A stretch of DNA of 64,000 nt. It comes from Dehalococcoidia bacterium (GTDB taxonomy: Bacteria; Chloroflexota; Dehalococcoidia; Lucifugimonadales; UBA2985). A program made the translations under genes and the position numbers. Every line of letters begins with the position of its first letter. Within the stretch, counting starts at the first letter, position 1. Shown piece by piece: positions 14 to 58,392 of the stretch. The notes under the pieces are model-generated. The model was given only the letters and a program-made list of their open reading frames with translations. It was not told where the DNA came from and did not search any database. The stretch is from NCBI GenBank assembly GCA_034422115.1, contig DAOUJW010000005.1, positions 64,292-128,291 on the forward strand. The letters run 5' to 3'.

Positions 14-154
14 TTCCCGCTCATGGTGAGGCTCTCGAACCATGGGCGGATATACCACGGTCGTTGATATTCCGCTCGCCCTTCGACAGGCTCAGGACGA
101 GCGGATAATCTCTCCCCCGCTCGTGGTGAGCCTGTCGAACCATTCGAGCGGGGC
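14..154. repeat. Cluster of three REP-like hairpin units (family A); left copy of a 141-bp direct repeat bracketing the methyltransferase-HNH gene
   Basis: Units at 17-49, 72-104 and 117-151 have the form CCGCTC[AG] / short stem / GAGCYTGTCGA (or its complement) / stem / [CT]GAGCGG. Region 14-154 aligns position-for-position with 1700-1840, with about 11 mismatches counted by eye. Confidence 0.85.
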
Positions 155-224
155 TTTCCTGCCGCAAAACAACCCGTACCTCCAAGTGGTAGAATTACGT
201 CACATTCCAACCCAGGGGAAGCAC

Positions 225-1592
225 ATGACAGAACCCAACTTCAAGAACCGCACGCTGTGGACGGGCGACAACCTGGACATCATGCGCGGCCTCAACTCCG
301 AGTCCGTAGACCTCATCTACCTGGACCCGCCCTTCAACTCCAACCGCGACTACTCCGCGCCCATTGGCTCCGAGGCGGCCGGCGCAGCCTTCAAGGACAC
401 CTGGACCCTCAACGACGTAGACCTTGCGTGGCACGGGCTGATTGCGGAGGAGCACCCGGGGCTGTACGGCATAATCGACGCCGCGGGCGTTGCCCAGGGC
501 AAGGGCATGAAGTCATACCTGATAATGATGGCCGTCCGCCTTCTGGAGATGAGGCGGATTCTGAAGCCGACCGGCTCCATCTACCTACACTGCGACCCCA
601 CGGCCAGCCACTACCTGAAGCTGACTATGGACAGCGTTTTCGGGTCGGGGAACTTCCGCAGTGAGATCACCTGGAAGCGCACCAACGCCAAGGGCCTGGC
701 CTTCAAGGGCTATCCCAACAACGCCGACATCCTGCTGTACTACAGCAAGACGGATGATTTCACCTGGAAGCGTCCTTTCCGGCCCCACGACCAGGCCTAC
801 GTGGACAAGTTCTACAAGAACATTGAGCCGGAGACGGGCAGACGCTACATGCTTGATAACTTGGTGAACCCGAACCACGACCGCCCCAACCTGACCTACG
901 AGTTCCTTGGCGTCACCAGGGTGTGGCGCTGGACCCGGGAGCGGATGCAGTCGGCCTATGACCAGGGTTTGGTAGTCCAGCAGCGTCCCGGGGCGGTGCC
1001 AAGGCTAAAGAGGTATCTGGACGAGATGCAAGGCAATCCCGTGGACACCATCTGGGACGACATCAAGCCCGTTCAGCCGCGCTCTGCGGAGCGCGTGGGC
1101 TACCCAACCCAGAAGCCTATTGCCCTGCTGGAGCGCATAATCAGCGCCTCCTCAAACCCCGGCGACGTCGTCCTGGACCCCTTCTGCGGCTGCGCCACCG
1201 CGCTGATAGCCGCGGAGAAGCTGGAGCGCCAGTGGGTAGGCATAGACCTGTCGCCGGTGGCTAGGACCCTGGTGCAGCGTCGGATGGCAAATGAGCTTGG
1301 GTTTGACAGCCTTGGGGTAATCTACCGGGAGGACGTGCCAAGGCGGACGGATGTTGAGAAGCCGCCGCCCTACCGGACGCAGAAGCACACCCTCTACGGA
1401 ATGCAGGAGGGCGTATGCGCCGGGTGCGAGGTGCTGTTCCCATTCAGGAACTTCACCGTTGACCACGTTGTGCCCAGGGCCCGGGGCGGCACAGATCACC
1501 TGGAGAACCTGCAGCTTCTCTGCAACGCCTGCAACTCCCTGAAGGGCACAAAGTCGCAGGCGGAGTTCCTGGCCGCGCTGCGGAGCAGGTAG
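225..1592 (+). CDS. DNA methyltransferase (N6-adenine/N4-cytosine type, beta-class motif order) fused to a C-terminal HNH endonuclease domain
   Basis: ORF 42..1592. The first 61 codons read through repeat units, so the ATG at 225 (MTEPNFKNRTLW) is preferred. Motif IV (DPPFNS) precedes motif I (VLDPFCGCATALIAA). The C-terminus CAGCE...VDHVVPRARGGTDHLENLQLLCNACNSLKG is an HNH signature. Confidence 0.85.
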   Translation: MTEPNFKNRTLWTGDNLDIMRGLNSESVDLIYLDPPFNSNRDYSAPIGSEAAGAAFKDTWTLNDVDLAWHGLIAEEHPGLYGIIDAAGVAQGKGMKSYLIMMAVRLLEMRRILKPTGSIYLHCDPTASHYLKLTMDSVFGSGNFRSEITWKRTNAKGLAFKGYPNNADILLYYSKTDDFTWKRPFRPHDQAYVDKFYKNIEPETGRRYMLDNLVNPNHDRPNLTYEFLGVTRVWRWTRERMQSAYDQGLVVQQRPGAVPRLKRYLDEMQGNPVDTIWDDIKPVQPRSAERVGYPTQKPIALLERIISASSNPGDVVLDPFCGCATALIAAEKLERQWVGIDLSPVARTLVQRRMANELGFDSLGVIYREDVPRRTDVEKPPPYRTQKHTLYGMQEGVCAGCEVLFPFRNFTVDHVVPRARGGTDHLENLQLLCNACNSLKGTKSQAEFLAALRSR

Positions 1593-13165: not shown

Positions 13166-15610
13166 TTACGGACTCAGCAGCCCCGTTTCCCTCAAATCCG
13201 GTGACCCCTCGTCGTCCGGGTGCAGGCCGGGTTCCAGGCGGTCGGCGGCTATCCCCGATATGACGCCTGCGTTGGCGTCCAGGGTGTCCAGGAGAGAGGA
13301 CACGTACTCCTCCGCCGTCTCGGTGGGCAGCCTCACAAAGTAGTCAAAGAGCCGCATAGAGGACTCGGCCCCAAGCTCTCCTTCGGTCATCAGCTCCTCC
13401 CTCAGCTCCGCCAGGTTGGGGTCCTCCAGGACCGCAAGCCACTGGATCAGGTAGCCAAGCATGTGCTCGTCCAGGCCCTGGTTCAAGCGCCATGACGCCA
13501 GCCGCCGGCTGATGAAGACGTGAAACCCCTCATAGTCCGGGTAGGAGAGGATTGTGGCGCCCGTTAGCTCCTCCAGCTTCAGCCAGAAGGCCCTCTCAAA
13601 CTGCTGGGCCTGGGCCTCCCTGATGCTGCTCAGGGTGTGCCTGGAGGCCGTGCTCTCCGCCGGGTCGGGGTAGGCGTGCCTCTGATGCACGTGGCCCATC
13701 TCATGGGCCAGGGATTGGATTACGTCGGCCAGCCCCCGCTCGGCGTCTATGGCCACCGTCGTCCTCCCGAAGCGGGGCACAGTTATCCCGACTGCCGTCG
13801 CCTTTATCCGCTCCCGCTGCTCAAAGAGGCGCGGGTACTCCGACTCCGGGCTGAGGGCGAACCTCTCCGCGAAGTAGCCGTCTATCCAGTCGTTGAACTC
13901 CGCCCTGGTGAAGAACAGAATCTCCAGGCGTTCGTCGTGGAGGCTCTGGCCGGTCAGCAGGTAGTAGCCCGCGTCCACGACGTCCAGCACCTCCCGGGAG
14001 TAGTCCGGCCCGCCTTCAAGGCTGATGGCCGGCTCCCGTATCTCAAGCAGCGACTCCAGGGCCGACAGCTTGAGCCGTAGGTCGTCTTCGCTGTAGACGA
14101 CGGGGGCAGTTTCGTCGGCCTCCACCGCGCTCCAAACAAAGGTCTTCTCATAGACGTTGTCGTCCTCGTTGGTCTCCACGACCGCGTTATCCGGGTCAAT
14201 CACCATCCTCAGGGTGTGTGGCCCCTCGTCGATGGTCACCTGGTCGGCAAGCCCGTCCCAGTCCTCGCTCCAGAGGAGGAGGTTGGAGGGCATACTGCCC
14301 TGGAACTCAAAGGTCTGGACAAGCACGTCATCGAAGTAGAGGTCTGTAGTGAAGGGAGCTGCGGCCTCCACGGTGCTGAGGTTGTGCACCGCTACGTCCA
14401 CGTAGGGCGTCCTGCCGACGACCAGTGGGTCGTCCAGAAAAGTCCCCCGCTCGTGGGAGATGCTGATGGGCGCGTCCGAGTCCATCCTCCATCCGGGAGT
14501 GAGGTTGGGCAGCGTCAGAGGCGCGGGCGGAGTTGCGTCAGGCGTATGCTCCGCGGCGGGCATCGGCGCAACCGGCCCCGTGCCCCAAGTGAACTCCCTC
14601 TCTATGGTGTTGTTGCTCTCGTCCGACTCCTCAACCGCGCCCGTGGCGTCCAGCACTACCTTCAGGGTATGGACGCCCGGCGTAACCCTGGTAACGCTCT
14701 GCAGCCTGTCCCACTCCGCACTGCCGGTGGCCTCCTCCGCCAGCAGCCCGTCCCCTTCCTGAACCGATATCAGGATGTCGTCAAAGTAGAGGTAGACCGT
14801 GACGTGCTCCCGGATGCTGGCGAGGCCCGTGTTCTGGAAGCCGTACCTGATATAGGTCGGCACGTCCACCGACAGGGGGCCGTCCGCCGCGTCCCCGGCG
14901 TAGGACGTGGCTATGAGCGAGTCACCCCAGCCGAGGGGTACCGACGGGGCCAGGTCCGGCAGCTTGACAGGGATGGGAGTTGGCTCGGGCGCGGGGAGCT
15001 CGGAGGGCAGCCAGGTGTACTCCAGCTCGTATACGTTGTCGGACTCGTCCGTCTCCGGCACCAGGTTTGTGGAGTCAACCACCAGCTTCAGGGTATGGGT
15101 TCCGGGCCGGAGGCTCAACCGCCGTGGAAGCTCATCCCAGTCGGTGAGGCTTATGAACAGGTTGGCCTCCAGATTGTTGGTAGTCCACCTCTCAACCAGA
15201 ACGTCGTTCAGGTACACGTCTATGAAGAAGGGGTAGTCTATGGGATTGGGACTGGCGTTGATCACCGCCCAGCTGAGATAGGTGTCGCCGTCCACCGACA
15301 GCGGCGCGTCGCTGCGAGGCCCGGGCGCGCCCGCGGCCACCAGCGGGAGACGCCAGCCTACGGGGGTGAAGGGAGCGACGTTGACGTTGGCCTTTCTGGC
15401 AGGCGTGGGCGCAAGAGTGGGGATGGGCGTGGGCGGCGGGGTTGGCGTCGGCGCTGGGGTGGGTGTGGCGGTGGGCGCGAGGGTGGGCGAAGGCATCGGC
15501 GACGGGCTGGGCTCCGGGGTATCGGTGGGCGCGGCCTCCGGCCCTGGGCAGCCCGTCGCCAGCAGGGCGCTTACCGCTACAATAAGGAGTAGTAGATAGC
15601 GAGTCCTCAT
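13166..15610 (-). CDS. Secreted lipoprotein with a Pro/Thr-rich linker, three CARDB-like repeats and a C-terminal HExxH metalloprotease-like region
   Basis: Start MRTRYLLLLIVAVSALLATGC (lipobox) at 15610. Linker is PTDTPEPSPSPMPSPTLAPTATPTPAPTPTPPP. Three repeats of about 130 aa end in ESDESDNVYELEYTW, ESDESNNTIEREFTW and ETNEDDNVYEKTFVW. The metalloprotease-like motif is SLAHEMGHVHQRH. Confidence 0.75.
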   Translation of the reverse strand: MRTRYLLLLIVAVSALLATGCPGPEAAPTDTPEPSPSPMPSPTLAPTATPTPAPTPTPPPTPIPTLAPTPARKANVNVAPFTPVGWRLPLVAAGAPGPRSDAPLSVDGDTYLSWAVINASPNPIDYPFFIDVYLNDVLVERWTTNNLEANLFISLTDWDELPRRLSLRPGTHTLKLVVDSTNLVPETDESDNVYELEYTWLPSELPAPEPTPIPVKLPDLAPSVPLGWGDSLIATSYAGDAADGPLSVDVPTYIRYGFQNTGLASIREHVTVYLYFDDILISVQEGDGLLAEEATGSAEWDRLQSVTRVTPGVHTLKVVLDATGAVEESDESNNTIEREFTWGTGPVAPMPAAEHTPDATPPAPLTLPNLTPGWRMDSDAPISISHERGTFLDDPLVVGRTPYVDVAVHNLSTVEAAAPFTTDLYFDDVLVQTFEFQGSMPSNLLLWSEDWDGLADQVTIDEGPHTLRMVIDPDNAVVETNEDDNVYEKTFVWSAVEADETAPVVYSEDDLRLKLSALESLLEIREPAISLEGGPDYSREVLDVVDAGYYLLTGQSLHDERLEILFFTRAEFNDWIDGYFAERFALSPESEYPRLFEQRERIKATAVGITVPRFGRTTVAIDAERGLADVIQSLAHEMGHVHQRHAYPDPAESTASRHTLSSIREAQAQQFERAFWLKLEELTGATILSYPDYEGFHVFISRRLASWRLNQGLDEHMLGYLIQWLAVLEDPNLAELREELMTEGELGAESSMRLFDYFVRLPTETAEEYVSSLLDTLDANAGVISGIAADRLEPGLHPDDEGSPDLRETGLLSP

Positions 15611-15757
15611 GGAAAAAGTGTAGCAGATACGTCTCAGCCTCAGCATTTACCTGCTATGATAGAGGTATAGGTATAGGGAGCATGACAGTTCACTAACGCT
15701 TGGCGCTTCAATCTATCTTTACGCGAGCAGTTTTAAGGGATTATTAAGAGGCAAGAG

Positions 15758-17026
15758 TTGGTCAGATCCGTCTTATACTTCGCCCTTGGCATAGCGCTGG
15801 CCCTGGTCACCCTGGTGGTCATAGCCCTGGTGGTGACCAACTTCACCGGCGACGACCCGGCGCCCGCGCCTACGGCCAATCCCTCGGCCGCGGGGCCTGT
15901 TGGACCAGACACGCAGCCCGCGCCCACGGCCACGCCTTCGGCCGCGGGGCCTGTCGGACCCGACACGCAGCCCGCGCCCACCGACTCCCCTACCGCTACT
16001 GCGCCTGACGCGCCCACGGCCCAGCCGTCGCCCACCTCCACGCCCTCGGCGAACATGGACCGCGACCTGGAGATCGTAACGCTCCTTCGCAAGGACGCCA
16101 TACCGGCCATCCTGGAGCCGGAGTTCCTGGCCGTTACCGAGGCCGACGAGCAGATGAAGGAGGACGAGCTGGTCTTGGGGATATCCATCGAGGGGGACTC
16201 ACGGGCCTACTCCGTCAACATGCTCAGCAGGCACGAGATAGCCAACGACGTGGTGGGAGGCATGCCCGTCGCCGTTACCTGGTGACCCCTCTGTTTCTCG
16301 GGCATAGTTTATGCCCGTGAGTTCGGAGAAGAGACACTGACCTTCGGCGTGTCCGGCAAGCTGGTGATGAACGCCCTGGTCATGTACGACCACCAGACGG
16401 ACTCCCTGTGGAGCCACTTCACGGGGGACGCCATTGAGGGCGACTACCTGGGCACAAGGCTGGAGCTTGTTCCGTCAACCCACACCACATGGGGCAGGTG
16501 GAAGGAGCTGCACCCCGACACCCTGGCGCTGGACAAGGGCGGGCGGTACAGCTATGACAACTACACGTCCTACTACCAGAGGTCGGACGCCGGCGTCATT
16601 GGCGAGACCGTTATCGACGACCGCCTGGCCACCAAGGACCTGGTCGTGGGCCTGGTGATCGGCGGCGAGGCCAAGGCCTACGCCTTCGACGACCTGAGCG
16701 AGCAGCCCGTGGTCAACGACGTCGTGGGAGGCGCAAACGTGGTGGTCGTTTTCGACGCCGAATCCGAGACCGGCAACGTCTACAGCCGAGACGTGGACGG
16801 CCGTACCCTGGAGTTCCGGCTGCTTGAGGACACCGGCTCAGGCGACCTGCTGATGGAGGACCTGGAGACGGGAACCCGGTGGCTGCTCCTCACGGGAGAG
16901 GCCGTTGACGGCCCCCTTCAAGGCACGCGGCTGGCGCAGGTTCCAACCAACTACTCCTTCTGGTTTGCGTGGAAGGACTGGCATCCCTCCACCGGCCTCT
17001 TTGTTCGTGACGGCGCGGCCTCCTGA
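15758..17026 (+). CDS. DUF3179-like extracytoplasmic protein with in-frame TGA (16283-16285), proposed to encode selenocysteine (UPLC in place of CPLC)
   Basis: ORFs 15758..16285 and 16349..17026 are in the same frame, with no other stop between them. The read-through product is ...NDVVGGMPVAVTW-U-PLCFSGIVYAREFGEETLTFGVSGKLVMNALVMYDHQTDSLW. The N-terminus has a TM anchor and a Pro/Ala/Thr linker. TTG start with AAGAGG upstream. Confidence 0.65.
15881..15988 (+). repeat. In-frame 54-bp tandem duplication in the linker of the first DUF3179-like gene
   Basis: PSAAGPVGPDTQPAPTAT followed by PSAAGPVGPDTQPAPTDS. The nucleotide copies 15881-15934 and 15935-15988 are nearly identical. Confidence 0.85.
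16299..16317 (+). promoter_or_regulatory. SECIS-like hairpin 13 nt downstream of the in-frame TGA
   Basis: CGGGCATA-gtt-TATGCCCG is an 8-bp stem. The apical loop starts with G, 21 nt after the UGA. Confidence 0.55.
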
Positions 17027-17150
17027 CCGGCGCGCTTGAACCCTTCAACATTCCGCCCTTTTCTGTTATAGCCTCTTAATATACTTAAGGATTGCGAAAG
17101 ATGGAGCCGTTATGATTTGGCGAATAAGACCTTGGGAGAGGTATATCCGC

Positions 17151-18377
17151 ATGACAATGGTGAAGGCTCGTGGACTTGCCGTTGGCCTGACGATGACGTC
17201 GGGGTTGGCGCTGCTCGCCGCCGGGTGCAGCGAGCCCGCCGCCACGCCCGCACCGACGTCCGAGTCAACCTCCACGCCCCAGGCCACGTCCACCCCTGCG
17301 CCCACACTCGAGCCCGTTCCCACCACCACCCCCTTCCCCCTGTCGGACACCGGCAGGGTTACCAGGGATGAGCTTGTCGCCAGGCTGCAGACCGCCGTGG
17401 TGAGGGACGGCATCCCCGCCATCCTTGATCCTCACTTCGTGCCGCCGGAGTCGGTGCCGCCGGAGTTCCGGGACACGGAGCTTGTCATGGGAATGTCGCT
17501 GAACGGCGAGAGCAAGGCCTACCCCATAGACATCCTCAGCCATCACGAGATAGTCAACGACGTGGTGGGAGGTGTGCCCGTCGCCGTCACGTGGTGACCG
17601 CTCTGCTACTCGGGCGTAGTCTACGCCCGCCAGTTCGGTGAAGAGACTCTGACCTTTGGCGTGTCCGGCAAACTGAGCATGAACGCAATGATAATGTACG
17701 ACCACCAGACGGACTCCCTGTGGGCTCACTTCACGGGTGAAGCCATCACGGGCGATTACCTGGGCACGCAGCTGGAGGTGCTGCCTGTGATGCAGACCAC
17801 CTGGGGCCACTGGCGGGATCTTCACCCCGACTCCCAGGTGCTGGCGTGGAGGATGCCAACCAATGAGGACCCCACCGGCGCGCTGGGCTTCACCTACGAC
17901 CCGTACCTGGGCTACTACGCCAGCGGCTGGGTCGGCTACGGGCGTACCAGGGAGGACAACCGCTTGGAGCAGAAGGACTTTGTGCTGGGCCTGGTGCTGA
18001 ACGACGAGTCCATGGCCTACCCCTTCAATAACCTTGTAGACCACCCCGTCGTCAACGACTCCATTGGAGGAAGGGACGTGGTGATCACCTACGAGCCTGT
18101 GTCGGACACGGGGGCAGTCTTCTCACGGGAGGTAGACGGCCGCTCCCTCACCTTCAACATCCTGGAGGAGGACGGCGCAGACGGCCTGATTATGGTCGAT
18201 GAGGAGACCGGCAGCCGGTGGCTGCTCCTGACGGCGGAGGCCGTGGATGGCCCTCTCAAGGGAACCAGGCTTGAGCAGCTGCCCGCGTTCTACTCCTACT
18301 GGTTCGCATGGGCGGACTGGAACCCCACTACCGGCCTGTTCCTCCAGGAGGGCATCCAAGAGGGCGGCTCTCCGTAG
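17151..18377 (+). CDS. DUF3179-like lipoprotein paralogue with in-frame TGA (17595-17597), proposed to encode selenocysteine
   Basis: ORFs 17112..17597 and 17661..18377 are in the same frame. The product reads ...NDVVGGVPVAVTW-U-PLCYSGVVYARQFGEETLTFGVSGKLSMNAMIMYDHQTDSLW. Lipobox LALLAAGC. GGGAGAGG lies upstream of the ATG at 17151. Confidence 0.65.
17611..17629 (+). promoter_or_regulatory. SECIS-like hairpin downstream of the second in-frame TGA
   Basis: CGGGCGTA-gtc-TACGCCCG is an 8-bp stem at the same distance from the TGA as in the paralogue. The A:T pair of copy 1 is replaced by G:C here, which is a compensatory change. Confidence 0.55.
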
Positions 18378-18547
18378 GCGGGCCCTCCAAGTCGCCTTGT
18401 ACTCCAGGCAGGCGCATCGCCTGCAGAAGGAGGCGCTATACGATTACAGGAAAGTTGGAGACGCAGCGGTACTCACACCAGTGACTGCGGCTGAACGCAG
18501 TCGAAGCGTATAGAAGGGTGGAAAACAGGATAGAGCGGAGGTAGACA

Positions 18548-19513
18548 ATGCACAGATACGTTGCAAACCGACTTATACAGGGGGCCCTCACCGGGCTGCT
18601 GGTGTCCCTGGTGATCTTCGCCATTATGCGCATCGCCCCCGGCGACGTGGCTATGATGATTGCGCTGGAGCAGAACGGCGGAGAGGCGGACCTGGTCACG
18701 GAGCCGCAGCTTGCGAAAATCCGCGAGGACGTGGGGCTTAACGCTCCCCTGCACATGCAGTACCTGACCTGGATTGGCGGCTGGGTAACCGGCGACTGGG
18801 GAAAGTCCATGTTCTCCAATGAGGGCATCTGGGGGAACTTCATGAGAAAGCTGCCCGTGACCCTTGAGCTGGCGCTTCTCTCCATTGGCCTGTCAACGGT
18901 GCTCGGTCTGCCCGCGGGCATACTTATGGCCATAAAAAAGGACACCTGGATAGACTACGTCCTGAGAATCTGGTCCCTGTCCGGCCTCTCCATACCCAAC
19001 TTCTGGCTCGCCACCATGGTGCTGGTTGTAGGGATGTACGCCTTTGACTGGAGCCCGCAGCTGGGGTTCGTCCCGTTCTTCGATGACCCCGGGGCGAACA
19101 TGAGCCAGTTCTTCTGGCCCGCCCTGATAGTGGGCTTCTCCTCCATGGTCACCAAGGCGCGGATGATGCGCTCCACCATGCTGGAGGTGCTGCGACAGGA
19201 CTACATCCGCACGGCCCATGCCAAGGGCCTGAGGAGCACGGTCGTCACCTACCGGCACGCTCTGAAGAACGCCTTCATCCCGGTAATCACCGTTGTCGGC
19301 TTCTCCATAGCGGGCATCATCGGCGGGTCTGTGATTATGGAGCGCATCTTTGTCCTGGACGGCATAGGCAACATGCTGGTGGAGGGCATGAACCAGCGGG
19401 ACTACCCCATTGTGCAGTCGCTGGTGCTGCTCTTCTCCCTGTGGATAGTGATCGTGAACCTCCTGGTGGACCTGAGCTACGGGTGGCTTGACCCCCGCAT
19501 CCGTCACGACTAG
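18548..19513 (+). CDS. ABC transporter permease (OppB/DppB-like), copy 1
   Basis: 321 aa; MHRYVANRLIQGALTG..., EAA-like region YIRTAHAKGL and C-terminal DPRIR. Confidence 0.9.
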   Translation: MHRYVANRLIQGALTGLLVSLVIFAIMRIAPGDVAMMIALEQNGGEADLVTEPQLAKIREDVGLNAPLHMQYLTWIGGWVTGDWGKSMFSNEGIWGNFMRKLPVTLELALLSIGLSTVLGLPAGILMAIKKDTWIDYVLRIWSLSGLSIPNFWLATMVLVVGMYAFDWSPQLGFVPFFDDPGANMSQFFWPALIVGFSSMVTKARMMRSTMLEVLRQDYIRTAHAKGLRSTVVTYRHALKNAFIPVITVVGFSIAGIIGGSVIMERIFVLDGIGNMLVEGMNQRDYPIVQSLVLLFSLWIVIVNLLVDLSYGWLDPRIRHD

Positions 19514-19720
19514 AGGACGAAGGGCCGTCTCCCGGACAGATGTTATGGTTCATGCTGAGGGTTAGGGCGCGGCACTGGCCCTCAGCATGGTGGAAAAGGA
19601 CAGCTCTAGTAGATGGGAGATAGCGGATAGCGAGCGGGTTTGAATTTCGATTGAATACCCGACGATATTCTCAGGATTGGTATTCTGCCCAGCCATCCTG
19701 CTCCAGTGGAGGCAACAGTC

Positions 19721-20626
19721 ATGACTTCTGAGGTTAGACCACGGGTGTCCTTGCTGGGGATCACGCTTGGATTCGGAATCGCCTTGGCATCCATAACCGG
19801 GACGCTCATATATCTTAGTATCGTCGATACTGCGGACCATGTCGATTTGACGAGACGTGATCTCGCCGCCCACGCTTCTGAGGCCAACGGTCGGCTGGAG
19901 ACCATAGAGATCAAGTTGGACTCCACGGACGGACTTGACGATCAGTTGGAGACCATACAAGGCAAGCTGGGATCCATAGACGGACTTAACGATAAGTTGG
20001 AGACTATACAGGACAAACCGGACTCAATGGACGGGCTTAACAATCAGCTGGAGACTATACAAGTCAAGTTGGACTCCATGGACGGGCTTGTTGAGGATGT
20101 TCTTGCACGAGACGAAGAAATAGAATACCTTAACAATGAGTTGAACGGGTTTAGGTCGGCTCTGGCTCACTCTGAGGTCGGTAAGGTAATTGCAGAACAG
20201 CGGGTTGCCCATCTGAGTGCAGAGAGGGACTCATTGTCAGATGATCTGGCCCGCACATCTGAAATAAAAGACGCCCTGCAATATAAGCTGGACACTTTAT
20301 CTCGGAACCCGCCACTGGTATCAGAGCCCATCGAGTCGTCCGGCAATATCGCCCCACGTGAGATCGTGTCCATCCCGATTTACGTGGATCCCCTTGCGGA
20401 GGTAAGAGGGCAAATCATCTGCAATGGCGGCGCTTGCCAGGCGTATATTCAGGACCCAAGTGGACAAAACGTTCTGGACTTAGGTGAAATCCGGCAGGCC
20501 AACTTCAGCTTTGTAGCAGATATTGGTGGGAGGTACAGTTTGGTTATCAGGAGCGCTGAGAGTAGTGGCATTTCGTACGAGGCGACCCATACAGTATTGA
20601 CCCACTACTTCTCCAGCGCTGGGTAA
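19721..20626 (+). CDS. Hypothetical membrane-anchored protein with coiled-coil tandem repeats and a C-terminal beta-rich domain
   Basis: Lies in an AT-richer segment (about 19520-20860). Has one N-terminal TM (LLGITLGFGIALASITGTLIYL) and four 17-aa repeats of the form LETIxxKLDSxDGLxxx. An alternative GTG start exists at 19706. Confidence 0.55.
   Translation: MTSEVRPRVSLLGITLGFGIALASITGTLIYLSIVDTADHVDLTRRDLAAHASEANGRLETIEIKLDSTDGLDDQLETIQGKLGSIDGLNDKLETIQDKPDSMDGLNNQLETIQVKLDSMDGLVEDVLARDEEIEYLNNELNGFRSALAHSEVGKVIAEQRVAHLSAERDSLSDDLARTSEIKDALQYKLDTLSRNPPLVSEPIESSGNIAPREIVSIPIYVDPLAEVRGQIICNGGACQAYIQDPSGQNVLDLGEIRQANFSFVADIGGRYSLVIRSAESSGISYEATHTVLTHYFSSAG
19895..20098 (+). repeat. Four in-frame 51-bp tandem repeats
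   Basis: LETIEIKLDSTDGLDDQ, LETIQGKLGSIDGLNDK, LETIQDKPDSMDGLNNQ and LETIQVKLDSMDGLVED. Confidence 0.85.
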
Positions 20627-20720
20627 GCTGATTGCTTCGTTCCGGGGCATGGGGGTATCGCATTACGCAAGGCGCTTGCTGTACAATCATTACAATCTGA
20701 TAAAATCTCCCAAAATTGTA

Positions 20721-20749
20721 TTGACTGCTCTACAAATCGCCAATACAAT
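20721..20749 (+). promoter_or_regulatory. Sigma-70-like promoter upstream of permease copy 2, embedded in a 10-bp inverted repeat
   Basis: TTGACT (20721-20726), 17-nt spacer, TACAAT (20744-20749). AATTGTATTG and CAATACAATT arms flank and overlap the promoter. Confidence 0.45.
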
Positions 20750-20866
20750 TGGCACTCAATCATAGTGTTGACAGCGTCTTCACTTCAGGCGCAACCGCCT
20801 CTGACCGGTTGAATTCAGCAAGAACGTATAACGGGTGAAGTACCAGCCTAGAGCAAGAGGTCGATC

Positions 20867-21832
20867 ATGCATAGATACGTAGCGAACCGACTAATACAAG
20901 GGGCCGTTACCGGCATACTGGTGTCTCTGGTGATATTTGCCATCCTGCGCATCGCCCCTGGCGACGTAGCGATGATGATCGCGCTGGAGATGACCGGCGG
21001 CGAAGAGGACCTGGTCACAGAGGACCAGCTGCAGAAGATCCGCGAGGACGTGGGGCTCAACGCACCCATATACATGCAGTACCTGAGCTGGATTGGCGGC
21101 TGGGTGACCGGTGACTGGGGCGAGTCCATGTTCTCCAACGAGGGCATTTGGGAGAACTTCATGAGAAAGCTCCCTGTGACCCTGGAGCTGGCGATTCTCT
21201 CCATTGGCTTGTCCACCATCCTGGGGCTTCCCGCAGGGGTGCTCATGGCTCTCAAGCGGGACACCTGGATAGACTACACCCTGAGGATATGGTCTCTGTC
21301 CGGCCTCTCCATACCCAACTTCTGGCTTGCCACCATGCTGCTGGTTATCGGCATGTACATATTCGAGTGGAGTCCCCAGATCGGCTTCGTCCCGTTCTTT
21401 GACGATCCCGGGGCGAACATGGCCCAGTTCTTCTGGCCTGCCGTCATAGTTGGCTTCTCCTCCATGGTCACCAAGGCGCGGATGATGCGCTCCACCATGC
21501 TTGAGGTGCTGCGACAGGACTACATCCGCACAGCCCACGCCAAGGGCCTGAGCGGGACCATGGTCACCTATCGCCACGCCATGAAGAACGCCTTCATCCC
21601 GGTGATCACGGTCATCGGTTTCTCCATAGCCACCATCATCGGCGGCTCCGTGATCATGGAGCGCATCTTCGTCCTGGACGGCATCGGCAACATGCTGGTG
21701 GAGGGCATGAACCAGCGAGACTACCCGGTTGTGCAGTCGCTGGTGCTGCTCTTCTCCCTGTGGATAGTGATCACCAACCTGATTGTGGACCTGAGCTACG
21801 GCTGGCTGGACCCCCGCATACGGTTCGACTAG
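20867..21832 (+). CDS. ABC transporter permease (OppB/DppB-like), copy 2 (paralogue of 18548..19513)
   Basis: 321 aa, collinear with copy 1 over its full length. Most residues are identical, and the nucleotide sequences are clearly diverged. Confidence 0.9.
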   Translation: MHRYVANRLIQGAVTGILVSLVIFAILRIAPGDVAMMIALEMTGGEEDLVTEDQLQKIREDVGLNAPIYMQYLSWIGGWVTGDWGESMFSNEGIWENFMRKLPVTLELAILSIGLSTILGLPAGVLMALKRDTWIDYTLRIWSLSGLSIPNFWLATMLLVIGMYIFEWSPQIGFVPFFDDPGANMAQFFWPAVIVGFSSMVTKARMMRSTMLEVLRQDYIRTAHAKGLSGTMVTYRHAMKNAFIPVITVIGFSIATIIGGSVIMERIFVLDGIGNMLVEGMNQRDYPVVQSLVLLFSLWIVITNLIVDLSYGWLDPRIRFD

Positions 21833-28897: not shown

Positions 28898-28965
28898 GTC
28901 ACTCCCGACTTCTAGGGAGTCCACACCACGCCCCTCCTGGATTCCTGCTTTCGCAGGAATGACGG
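28898..28965 (+). repeat. Family B two-hairpin repeat
   Basis: gtcaCTCCCgacttctaGGGAGtccacaccacgcccctcctggATTCCTGCtttcGCAGGAATgacgg. Confidence 0.85.
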
Positions 28966-38414: not shown

Positions 38415-38443
38415 CTGGATTCCTGCTTCCGCAGGAATGACGG
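38401..38443 (+). repeat. Family B repeat (second-hairpin module) inside a 78-bp segment flanked by 17-bp direct repeats
   Basis: cacccctcccccacctggATTCCTGCttccGCAGGAATgacgg. GGGGGCCTTCTTCTCAC occurs at both 38374-38390 and 38469-38485. Confidence 0.8.
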
Positions 38444-39921: not shown

Positions 39922-40557
39922 ATGAGCGAGAGGGAGCGAATCGAGTGGGCGGACAGATGGGCGGGAGGCGACTACCAAGGCCGAAGCGCGCCGTCGCCTC
40001 TCATCATCGACTGGGCTGACCGACTGCCCAGGGGCCGCGCCCTGGACCTGGCCTGCGGCAGCGGTCGAAACGCCCTCTACCTTGCCGAGCGCGGCTTCCA
40101 GGTAGACGCAGTCGATATCGCAGAGCCTGCCCTGAAGCTGGTCCAGAACACCGCCCGGGAACGCGGGCTTTCGGTCAACACCATCCTGGCAGACCTGGAC
40201 GACCATCCCCTTCCCGCCGAGACCTACGACTTGATAATCACCAGCTTCTACCTCAACCGCAGCCTGGTACCCAGGATGCAGGACGCCCTCAAGCCCGGAG
40301 GCTTTGTGCTCCACGAGCAGCACTACGCCACCGACCACGACGTGAGCGGCCCCACGGACCCGGACTTCCGCCTGCGCTCCAACGAGCTTCTGCGGCTGTT
40401 CCCGGACTTCCGCGTGCGGTTCTTCTCGGAGGGCCTGGCGTGGGAGTCTGAGCGGGAGGGAGGCCGCCTAATTGCCCTTCAGCAGCTTGTGGCCCAGAAG
40501 CCGCCCGCTGGATTCGAGCCTCCGGCGAGCGGCGGCAGGGAGGCGCGCCTTGGCTGA
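39922..40557 (+). CDS. Class I SAM-dependent methyltransferase
   Basis: RALDLACGSGRNALYLAERGFQVDAVD (motif I); 211 aa. Confidence 0.8.
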   Translation: MSERERIEWADRWAGGDYQGRSAPSPLIIDWADRLPRGRALDLACGSGRNALYLAERGFQVDAVDIAEPALKLVQNTARERGLSVNTILADLDDHPLPAETYDLIITSFYLNRSLVPRMQDALKPGGFVLHEQHYATDHDVSGPTDPDFRLRSNELLRLFPDFRVRFFSEGLAWESEREGGRLIALQQLVAQKPPAGFEPPASGGREARLG

Positions 40558-53897: not shown

Positions 53898-54073
53898 GTC
53901 ACTCCCGTGCAGACGGGAGTCCACACTCCACCCCTCCTGGATTCCTGCTTCCGCAGGAATGGTATACCCGCGTCTCCGTCATTCCCGCCTCCGAGCGGGA
54001 ATCTAGGGCACGTCCCAGGAGATAGCGCAGATTGCAGGGCAGGGACTCTGGATTCCTGCCTTCGCAGGAATGG
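53898..54073 (+). repeat. Family B composite: full two-hairpin element plus two extra second-hairpin modules
   Basis: gtcaCTCCCGTgcagACGGGAGtccac..ATTCCTGCttccGCAGGAAT, then ATTCCCGCctccgaGCGGGAAT (53978-54003), then ATTCCTGCcttcGCAGGAAT (54046-54073). Confidence 0.85.
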
Positions 54074-56264: not shown

Positions 56265-56292
56265 TCCTGGATTCCTGCTTCCGCAGGAATGG
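56265..56292 (+). repeat. Family B repeat (second-hairpin module)
   Basis: tcctggATTCCTGCttccGCAGGAATgg. Confidence 0.75.
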
Positions 56293-58327: not shown

Positions 58328-58392
58328 GTCCACTCCCGCGAAGGCGGGAGTCCACGCCCCACCCCTCCTGGATTCCTGCCTATGCAGGAATG
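58328..58392 (+). repeat. Family B two-hairpin repeat
   Basis: gtccaCTCCCGCgaagGCGGGAGtccacgccccacccctcctggATTCCTGCctatGCAGGAATgg. Confidence 0.85.

Follow-up and report, generated by a model that had tools for sequence, protein, structure and literature searches.

A tandem pair of DUF3179 genes with an in-frame TGA at a conserved cysteine, probable selenoprotein genes of a Dehalococcoidia bacterium

In this work, we analysed a window of 64,000 nt from a Dehalococcoidia bacterium (Chloroflexota; GCA_034422115.1, contig DAOUJW010000005.1, positions 64,292-128,291), which holds two tandem genes of the DUF3179 family, both on the + strand and each interrupted by one in-frame TGA, a candidate codon for selenocysteine (Sec). 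Coordinates are positions of this window. Gene 1 extends over 15758..17026 (422 codons, with Sec as codon 176) and stops at the TGA 17024-17026; its start is probably the TTG at 15758, with AAGAGG just before it. Gene 2 extends over 17112..18377 (421 codons, Sec as codon 162), starts at ATG 17112 or ATG 17151 and stops at a TAG. The internal TGA lies at 16283..16285 in gene 1, in the column that the first Cys of an invariant WCPLC motif occupies, and at 17595..17597 in gene 2, in the same motif column; both genes share the context VAVTW-TGA-PLC(F/Y)SG(I/V)VYAR. An earlier inspection of the letters and their open reading frames (ORFs), here called the sequence-only reading, had described a same-frame split by a single TGA in each paralogue. 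The ORFs and translations show this in both genes, whose frames are open throughout save for that one codon, with no further stops or frameshifts.

The read-through proteins were searched with Cys substituted at the TGA, and both matched PF11376 (DUF3179) end to end across it, with E-values of 1e-86 (gene 1, spanning profile positions 1-292 of 292) and 8e-94 (gene 2) and bit scores of 291 and 315 against a gathering cut-off of 27. The family assignment of the sequence-only reading was therefore correct; NCBIfam gave no model or family match for the read-through proteins. A large protein collection yielded approximately 100 full-length homologues (37-51% identity), almost all of which read (V/I)T(W/Y)-C-P-L-C here. 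Specifically, [W/Y]-C-P-L-C stood at the TGA column in 94 full-length homologues, and in an alignment of 99 homologue sequences both motif cysteines, C81 and C84, were invariant. The proposal that the TGA replaces the first Cys of a CxxC motif, for which such an alignment had been suggested as a check, is supported by these homologues, and both paralogues keep the TGA across their relatives. As a separate observation, the Sec/Cys column is occupied by Arg (W-R-P-L-C) or Ser (W-S-P-L-C) in a few homologues (P0031, P0114 and P0026) whose downstream peptide is still of the Sec type. Codons for Arg and Ser (CGA/AGA, TCA) lie one nucleotide away from TGA, and the substitutions could be true losses or base-call errors. 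Another homologue, P0008 (673 amino acids), contains two complete DUF3179 domains in a single chain with W-C-P-L-C in each, a fused counterpart of the tandem arrangement.

The closest database matches (79-95% identity) were only 232-248 amino acids long and covered the C-terminal 55-58% of the query. The called starts of these C-terminal fragments disagree (MNAMIMYD, MYARQF, MLTFGV), which indicates that gene callers stop at the TGA and that there is no conserved internal start; no cluster name is on record for the fragment proteins. Annotation in two pieces, and the presence of a GTG 22 codons past each TGA, might suggest that the genes are genuinely split, with the C-terminal part initiated on its own and made as a second polypeptide beside the N-terminal one. 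However, the 21 codons between TGA and GTG are conserved as protein, PLC(F/Y)SGIVYAR.FG..TLTFG, and hold the invariant second Cys. The break would fall inside the invariant CxxC motif, the Cys homologues are single chains, and the starts called in orthologues differ, so a genuine split is very unlikely and one continuous reading frame is preferred.

The gene pair was found again, together with its surroundings, in 10 syntenic loci, and the TGA and a downstream hairpin (see below) are kept in both paralogues of each. Five of these 10 loci belong to named Dehalococcoidia genomes, which are metagenome-assembled genomes (MAGs), at 68-94% identity, for instance OZ242025.1 (94%). The conserved surroundings comprise a divergent CARDB/HExxH protein upstream and two Opp/Dpp-type permeases, followed by trp genes, downstream. 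In addition, metagenome contigs were scanned for the pattern ACN-TGG-TGA-CCN-YTN-TGY-TWY, of which the hairpin is not part, and at least 120 loci were obtained. A candidate was counted when a hidden Markov model (HMM) recognised DUF3179 sequence before and after the TGA in the same frame. Pooling the matches listed with the pattern matches of the window and with the syntenic loci gave 145 candidates, of which 112 were DUF3179 genes with TGA at the column, with HMM E-values down to 1e-142, and at least 90 further metagenome loci carry a DUF3179 gene with TGA at this position. We guess from the accession series that marine, soil and sediment sites are represented among the metagenome samples. 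Arrays in which Sec and Cys copies of DUF3179 stand in tandem are common. Judged by its sequences, the putative Sec form of DUF3179 is a large environmental subfamily, and as such neither an error nor a pseudogene.

Frameshift junk in low-coverage long-read relatives (L005/P0042) and one metagenome copy that looks degenerate (L049) are what might speak for TGAs that are sequencing or assembly errors, or for genes that are nonsense-mutated pseudogenes. Against this stand the TGA at the same column in both paralogues, in all 10 syntenic loci and in the further metagenome loci, which come from different projects, the flanks lying in one frame with E-values of 1e-100 or better against the DUF3179 HMM, and the lack of additional stops or frameshifts in either gene. 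We regard error or decay as extremely improbable.

The second feature that the two genes share is a hairpin beginning 13 nt past each internal TGA. The core of the putative Sec insertion sequence (SECIS) element lies at 16299..16317 in gene 1 (CGGGCATA-GTT-TATGCCCG; + strand, 8 bp, loop GUU, -11.0 kcal/mol) and at 17611..17629 in gene 2 (CGGGCGTA-GTC-TACGCCCG; + strand, 8 bp, loop GUC, -12.4 kcal/mol), where the energies are minimum free energies (MFE) of the hairpin alone. The stem, the 3-nt loop and their distance from the TGA were located exactly where the sequence-only reading had placed them. The compensatory pair that it had noticed between the copies, A:U (A:T in DNA) versus G:C, is also real: one copy has ATA (Ile)/TAT (Tyr) and the other GTA (Val)/TAC (Tyr), an Ile/Val change paired with synonymous Tyr codons. 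The published bacterial SECIS (bSECIS) criteria are a loop of 3-9 nt, a stem of 4-16 bp, a G in the first two loop positions, a spacing from the UGA of 16-37 nt and an MFE of -7.5 kcal/mol or lower (PMC13188914). Both hairpins agree with the model on every point, including the spacing, for which a fit had been claimed earlier and which is 21 nt from the TGA to the beginning of the loop. Rfam returned tRNAs only, at gathering scores over the window and at E <= 1 over 15700-18400, and it has no family available for testing bSECIS membership.

Covariation was analysed with 99 distinct 45-nt sequences in an ungapped alignment, with helix columns 17-24/28-35. Paired helix cells amounted to 85.6%, compared with 77.6 +/- 0.6% after shuffling (the observed value was reached in 0 of 500 shuffles) and with no more than 49% once the partner columns were slid. 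Changes on both sides were observed in six of the eight pairs, which 1 of 500 shuffles equalled, and in 37 cells, which none of 500 equalled; the covariation score was 0.175 versus 0.054 for shuffled alignments, and RNAalifold returned the same stem. Compensatory changes took several routes through the codons: GGC...GCC to GGA...UCC joins a synonymous Gly change to Ala-to-Ser, ACG...CGN to ACU...AGA is synonymous on both sides, and GGC...GCC to GCC...GGC swaps Gly and Ala in the protein. Relatives usually have a 7-bp stem with the loop C-GUG-U, and the clade of the window gains an A:U pair, giving 8 bp and the loop GUU or GUC; G25 and U26 of the alignment are nearly invariant. Selection on RNA structure, argued earlier from two copies, is thus supported by a helix that covaries across the whole set.

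The Sec and Cys forms differ in the residues that the stem encodes, with G..Y..A preferred in the former and A..F..(D/S) in the latter. The comparison of Cys-form DNA covered four sequences. Three of these four paralogues have the same TGIVYxR peptide with 1-4 stem mismatches that arise through synonymous choices, and two of the three decayed paralogues share a metagenome sample with Sec-type copies. The closest Cys-form relative, P0006 (L131:3424; TGT, C-L-L-C), has an intact stem, adjoins a Sec-type copy and has an ArsR-type regulator nearby, which suggests, on the sequence evidence, that it is a recent Sec-to-Cys conversion.

Among 33 well-supported genes of the window, 12 end in TGA, gene 1 included, and the terminal TGA of gene 1 is not followed by a SECIS-type hairpin. 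The use of TGA as terminator in these genes indicates that the code is standard. No other credible TGA-interrupted gene was found in the window, where the remaining same-frame splits were Arg/Gly-rich off-frame ORFs typical of high-GC DNA. On both grounds, a reassigned code with TGA as a sense codon was rejected.

Taken together, both genes are very probably genuine Sec-containing members of DUF3179 (PF11376), in which the internal TGA is read as Sec with the help of the hairpin. The mechanism would be the standard bacterial pathway, which we infer for these genes. The hairpin would act in translation as a bacterial SECIS element, with a G+C-rich stem of 7-8 bp and an apical loop presenting G-U. 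SelB-GTP carrying Sec-tRNA(Sec) would bind this loop and deliver Sec to the UGA, and the product would be a full-length protein of ~420 amino acids instead of a fragment of ~160-175. The terminal UGA of gene 1, which has no hairpin, would terminate normally.

Several results weigh against this interpretation. First, a model-fitting hairpin follows 44 of the 1894 TGA trinucleotides of the window (2.3%); at this chance rate a single hairpin is weak evidence, and the weight comes from conservation and covariation over approximately 100 loci. Second, the z-scores of whole-segment folding are modest (-2.5 and -1.2), and conservation of the hairpin is partly confounded with that of the peptide (S/T)G-I-V-Y-A-R. 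Third, none of selA, selB and selD turned up among the 30 largest window ORFs scanned, tRNA-Sec was found neither among the 6 tRNAs of the window nor by ARAGORN on the fetched relative loci, and the literature search found no report of experimental Sec insertion for any DUF3179 protein.

That no Sec machinery turned up among the ORFs and tRNAs scanned in the 64-kb window, and that Arg or Ser occupies the column in a few homologues, would also be compatible with a UGA read through without Sec. Either a near-cognate tRNA would insert Trp, Cys or Arg, with the hairpin as stimulator, or TGA would be reassigned. Yet TGA is a normal stop elsewhere in the window, even at the end of gene 1, and the spacing, the loop G-U and the stem of the hairpin are those of the bacterial SECIS model. 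Moreover, what is recoded is a redox or ligand Cys, as in the classic Cys/Sec pair, DUF3179 has already been catalogued as a selenoprotein family, and Dehalococcoidia are documented Sec users. Readthrough without Sec is consequently unlikely, and insertion of Sec remains the preferred reading.

The protein of gene 1 begins with a hydrophobic membrane anchor (15770..15838, + strand), followed by a Pro/Thr/Ala-rich linker, and that of gene 2 with a lipoprotein-type signal peptide (17151..17228, + strand; MTMVKARGLAVGLTMTSGLALLAAG followed by C), whose lipobox LLAAGC lies at 17211-17228. These features were read from the translations, and the consensus of the homologue alignment contains a lipobox-like L-x-A-C near the N-terminus, in accordance with the export or anchor signals recognised earlier. 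Both proteins are probably exported and membrane-tethered, the first through a signal anchor and the second through a lipoprotein signal. Each of them is an internal duplication of two homologous beta-rich modules, with W-U-P-L-C in the first only. In gene 1, module 1 (16145..16522, + strand) bears the W-U-P-L-C loop, and module 2 (16616..16993, + strand), aligned to module 1 with 37% identity over 126 amino acids (E 1e-21), has F-D-A-E-S in its place. The sole Cys of the gene 1 protein is C179, the partner in U-P-L-C, and the gene 2 protein has Cys only at C39 (lipobox) and C165 (U-P-L-C).

A structural model was made with AlphaFold 2 (AF2) of P0006, the closest Cys homologue, standing in for the window proteins. 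The model is confident (predicted local distance difference test 90, predicted template modelling score 0.86) and mostly beta, and has an N-terminal membrane helix at residues 7-38. C142 ends the strand 135-142, and C145 lies in the turn before the strand 147-152; with CxxC at a strand end and turn, the fold is not that of thioredoxin.

Concerning function, chances are about even that the Sec/Cys pair forms an extracytoplasmic working site on the outer side of the membrane, one that would have to be kept reduced and that undergoes selenol/thiol-selenylsulfide cycling or binds a soft metal. In a clade of soil contigs, a TlpA-like redoxin, CcdA (DsbD_TM) and then Sec-DUF3179 are encoded on one strand, adjoined by an extracytoplasmic function (ECF) sigma/anti-sigma pair. 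This apparent TlpA-CcdA-Sec-DUF3179 operon was seen in L015, L065 and L115 and partly in L035, L069 and L085, and a CcdA/TlpA-type pathway probably keeps the Sec/Cys site reduced in some lineages. Other loci have AhpD/CMD-like or two-component neighbours. The neighbourhood of the pair in the window does not discriminate redox cycling from metal binding.

Some findings count against this functional interpretation. The CcdA/TlpA neighbours are absent from the clade of the window, and the soil contigs are related and not independent. Foldseek with the P0006 model against PDB gave nothing at E <= 0.001, the likeness to Rieske and NirD having E >= 0.05 and counting as no more than a lead, and PDB sequence and profile searches gave no solved homologue, only a RING 'CPMC' knuckle at a chance-level E of 2.2. 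A literature search on DUF3179 function returned only the two selenoprotein reviews cited below, an Idiomarina paper with a passing mention in a table, and a macroalgae preprint that matched PF11376.

A rival that concerns function only sees in U-x-x-C a knuckle that binds a soft metal (Cu, Zn, Hg or Fe) and sits on a beta module of the Rieske/NirD kind, and not a redox-cycling selenylsulfide. Several features point this way: CxxC lies at a strand end and turn in the AF2 model and not at a helix N-terminus, the best, although weak, Foldseek matches were Rieske ferredoxins and NirD (template modelling score ~0.5 on the target, with a probability of up to 0.97), and the residues of H-E-x-x-N-D and D-H-Q, which hardly vary, could supply the rest of a metal site. 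In addition, the published tables that list DUF3179 also contain other UxxC families, which transport or bind metals, and the ArsR-type regulator adjoins one tandem array (L131). However, the Rieske ligand pattern CxH...CxxH is absent, the fold matches are below significance, no metal-transport gene adjoins the pair in the window, and TlpA/CcdA neighbours are equally compatible with either function. Such a knuckle is a serious possibility, which we place somewhat short of even. In broader terms, and only tentatively, DUF3179 might represent a distinct class of extracytoplasmic selenol/thiol enzymes or a soft-metal binder, built of two beta modules with U/C-x-x-C in the first only. In some lineages, a CcdA-TlpA pathway of its own, controlled by an ECF sigma factor, may keep this site reduced, and Sec forms are plentiful among Dehalococcoidia-like organisms of marine and soil origin. 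If this is true, the tandem Sec pair would be a good entry point to the function of the widespread DUF3179 family.

Further features of the window were recorded beside the gene pair. The divergent protein upstream (13166-15646, - strand; 826 amino acids) resembles a lipobox protein at its N-terminus, carries a Pro/Thr linker and three CARDB repeats and has a C-terminal HExxH motif (HEMGH). Its gene accompanies the DUF3179 pair in synteny in every close relative, and a functional link is possible. Downstream, the near-duplicate OppB/DppB-type permease genes at 18548-19513 and 20867-21832 are 1.35 kb apart, compared with ~0.35 kb in L001 and L002. The extra stretch between them (19514-20866), which may be an insertion, holds an ORF at 19706-20626 (306 amino acids) without a Pfam match. 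A TehB-like S-adenosylmethionine methyltransferase of the tellurite/selenite-resistance type (39922-40557, + strand) is the sole window gene with a conceivable link to selenium chemistry. An ORF at 42-1592 (+ strand) fuses an N6/N4 DNA methylase domain to a C-terminal HNH endonuclease domain. Finally, a 20-nt palindromic hairpin, ATTCCTGC-NNNN-GCAGGAAT, is present in six copies with perfect arms (28941-28960, 38419-38438, 53941-53960, 54052-54071, 56271-56290 and 58372-58391), none being expected in 100 shuffles, and looks like a repeated element of the REP or terminator type.

The DUF3179 pair can be compared with several known systems. Like the TlpA/ResA/DsbA-type thiol:disulfide oxidoreductases served by CcdA/DsbD, some of which have Sec forms, DUF3179 proteins are probably membrane-tethered and extracytoplasmic and are marked by W-C/U-x-x-C, and in one clade the DUF3179 gene apparently shares an operon with the genes of CcdA and a TlpA-like redoxin. 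DUF3179 has, however, no thioredoxin fold and no thioredoxin-family Pfam match, so that it may act alike without being a member of that family. A thioredoxin-fold oxidoreductase was rejected on two grounds, namely that Pfam gives DUF3179 alone and that CxxC lies at a strand end and turn in the P0006 model. To Rieske/NirD-like domains there is a weak structural likeness over a module of ~110 amino acids with a Cys-Pro-containing loop at a hairpin tip, but DUF3179 has neither the CxH/CxxH ligand set nor sequence similarity to them. A Rieske [2Fe-2S] protein was rejected as well, in view of the absent His ligands, the lack of a PDB profile match and the Foldseek E-values.

With respect to the RNA element, the consensus bSECIS (bSECISearch, PMC13188914) is a stem-loop in the coding region, and the present hairpins fit it with an upper stem of 7-8 bp, a spacing of 21 nt, an MFE below -7.5 kcal/mol and a loop of 3 nt (5 in most relatives) that begins with G and then U. 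Relative to E. coli fdhF, the core here is short, with no evident conserved lower stem or bulged U, and the predicted lower helices are unlike between the two copies. The pair is nevertheless a clear example of a coding-region SECIS that constrains the protein, since Gly/Ala swaps and the preference for Tyr over Phe track the base pairs. It represents neither a new recoding mechanism nor a new selenoprotein family. For annotation it matters in that public calls split both genes and dozens of relatives in two, and joining the pieces as selenoproteins would set right the protein set of a lineage rich in them.

The sequence-only reading had left open whether Sec-containing DUF3179 proteins had been described. 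They have: a 'DUF3179 domain-containing protein, pfam11376, UxxC/T' is listed in selenoprotein tables of 2022 (PMC9312934) and 2026 (PMC13188914), both of which credit Zhang and Gladyshev (Nucleic Acids Res 2007, PMC1976440), a study of an Olavius symbiont metagenome. BSepDB, which covers only species with a Sec pathway, counts two Dehalococcoidia MAGs among its top ten, one with 49 selenoprotein genes and one with 46, and one of these bears the same UUID-style (universally unique identifier) isolate name as relatives found here (PMC13326102). This supports the use of Sec at the level of the class. The family, the motif and the position of Sec are thus already published, the phenomenon is known and not new, and these two genes are further members. 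The DUF3179 family probably corresponds to 'OS_HP1' of the 2007 paper. Compared with the catalogued Sec-DUF3179 proteins, those of the window belong to the same Pfam family, have the same motif (U-P-L-C) with Sec at the first Cys of CxxC, and likewise combine a SECIS-like hairpin directly after the Sec codon with abundant Cys homologues. There is no essential difference between them; here the genes occur as a tandem pair, in a Dehalococcoidia genome, and are split in public protein sets.

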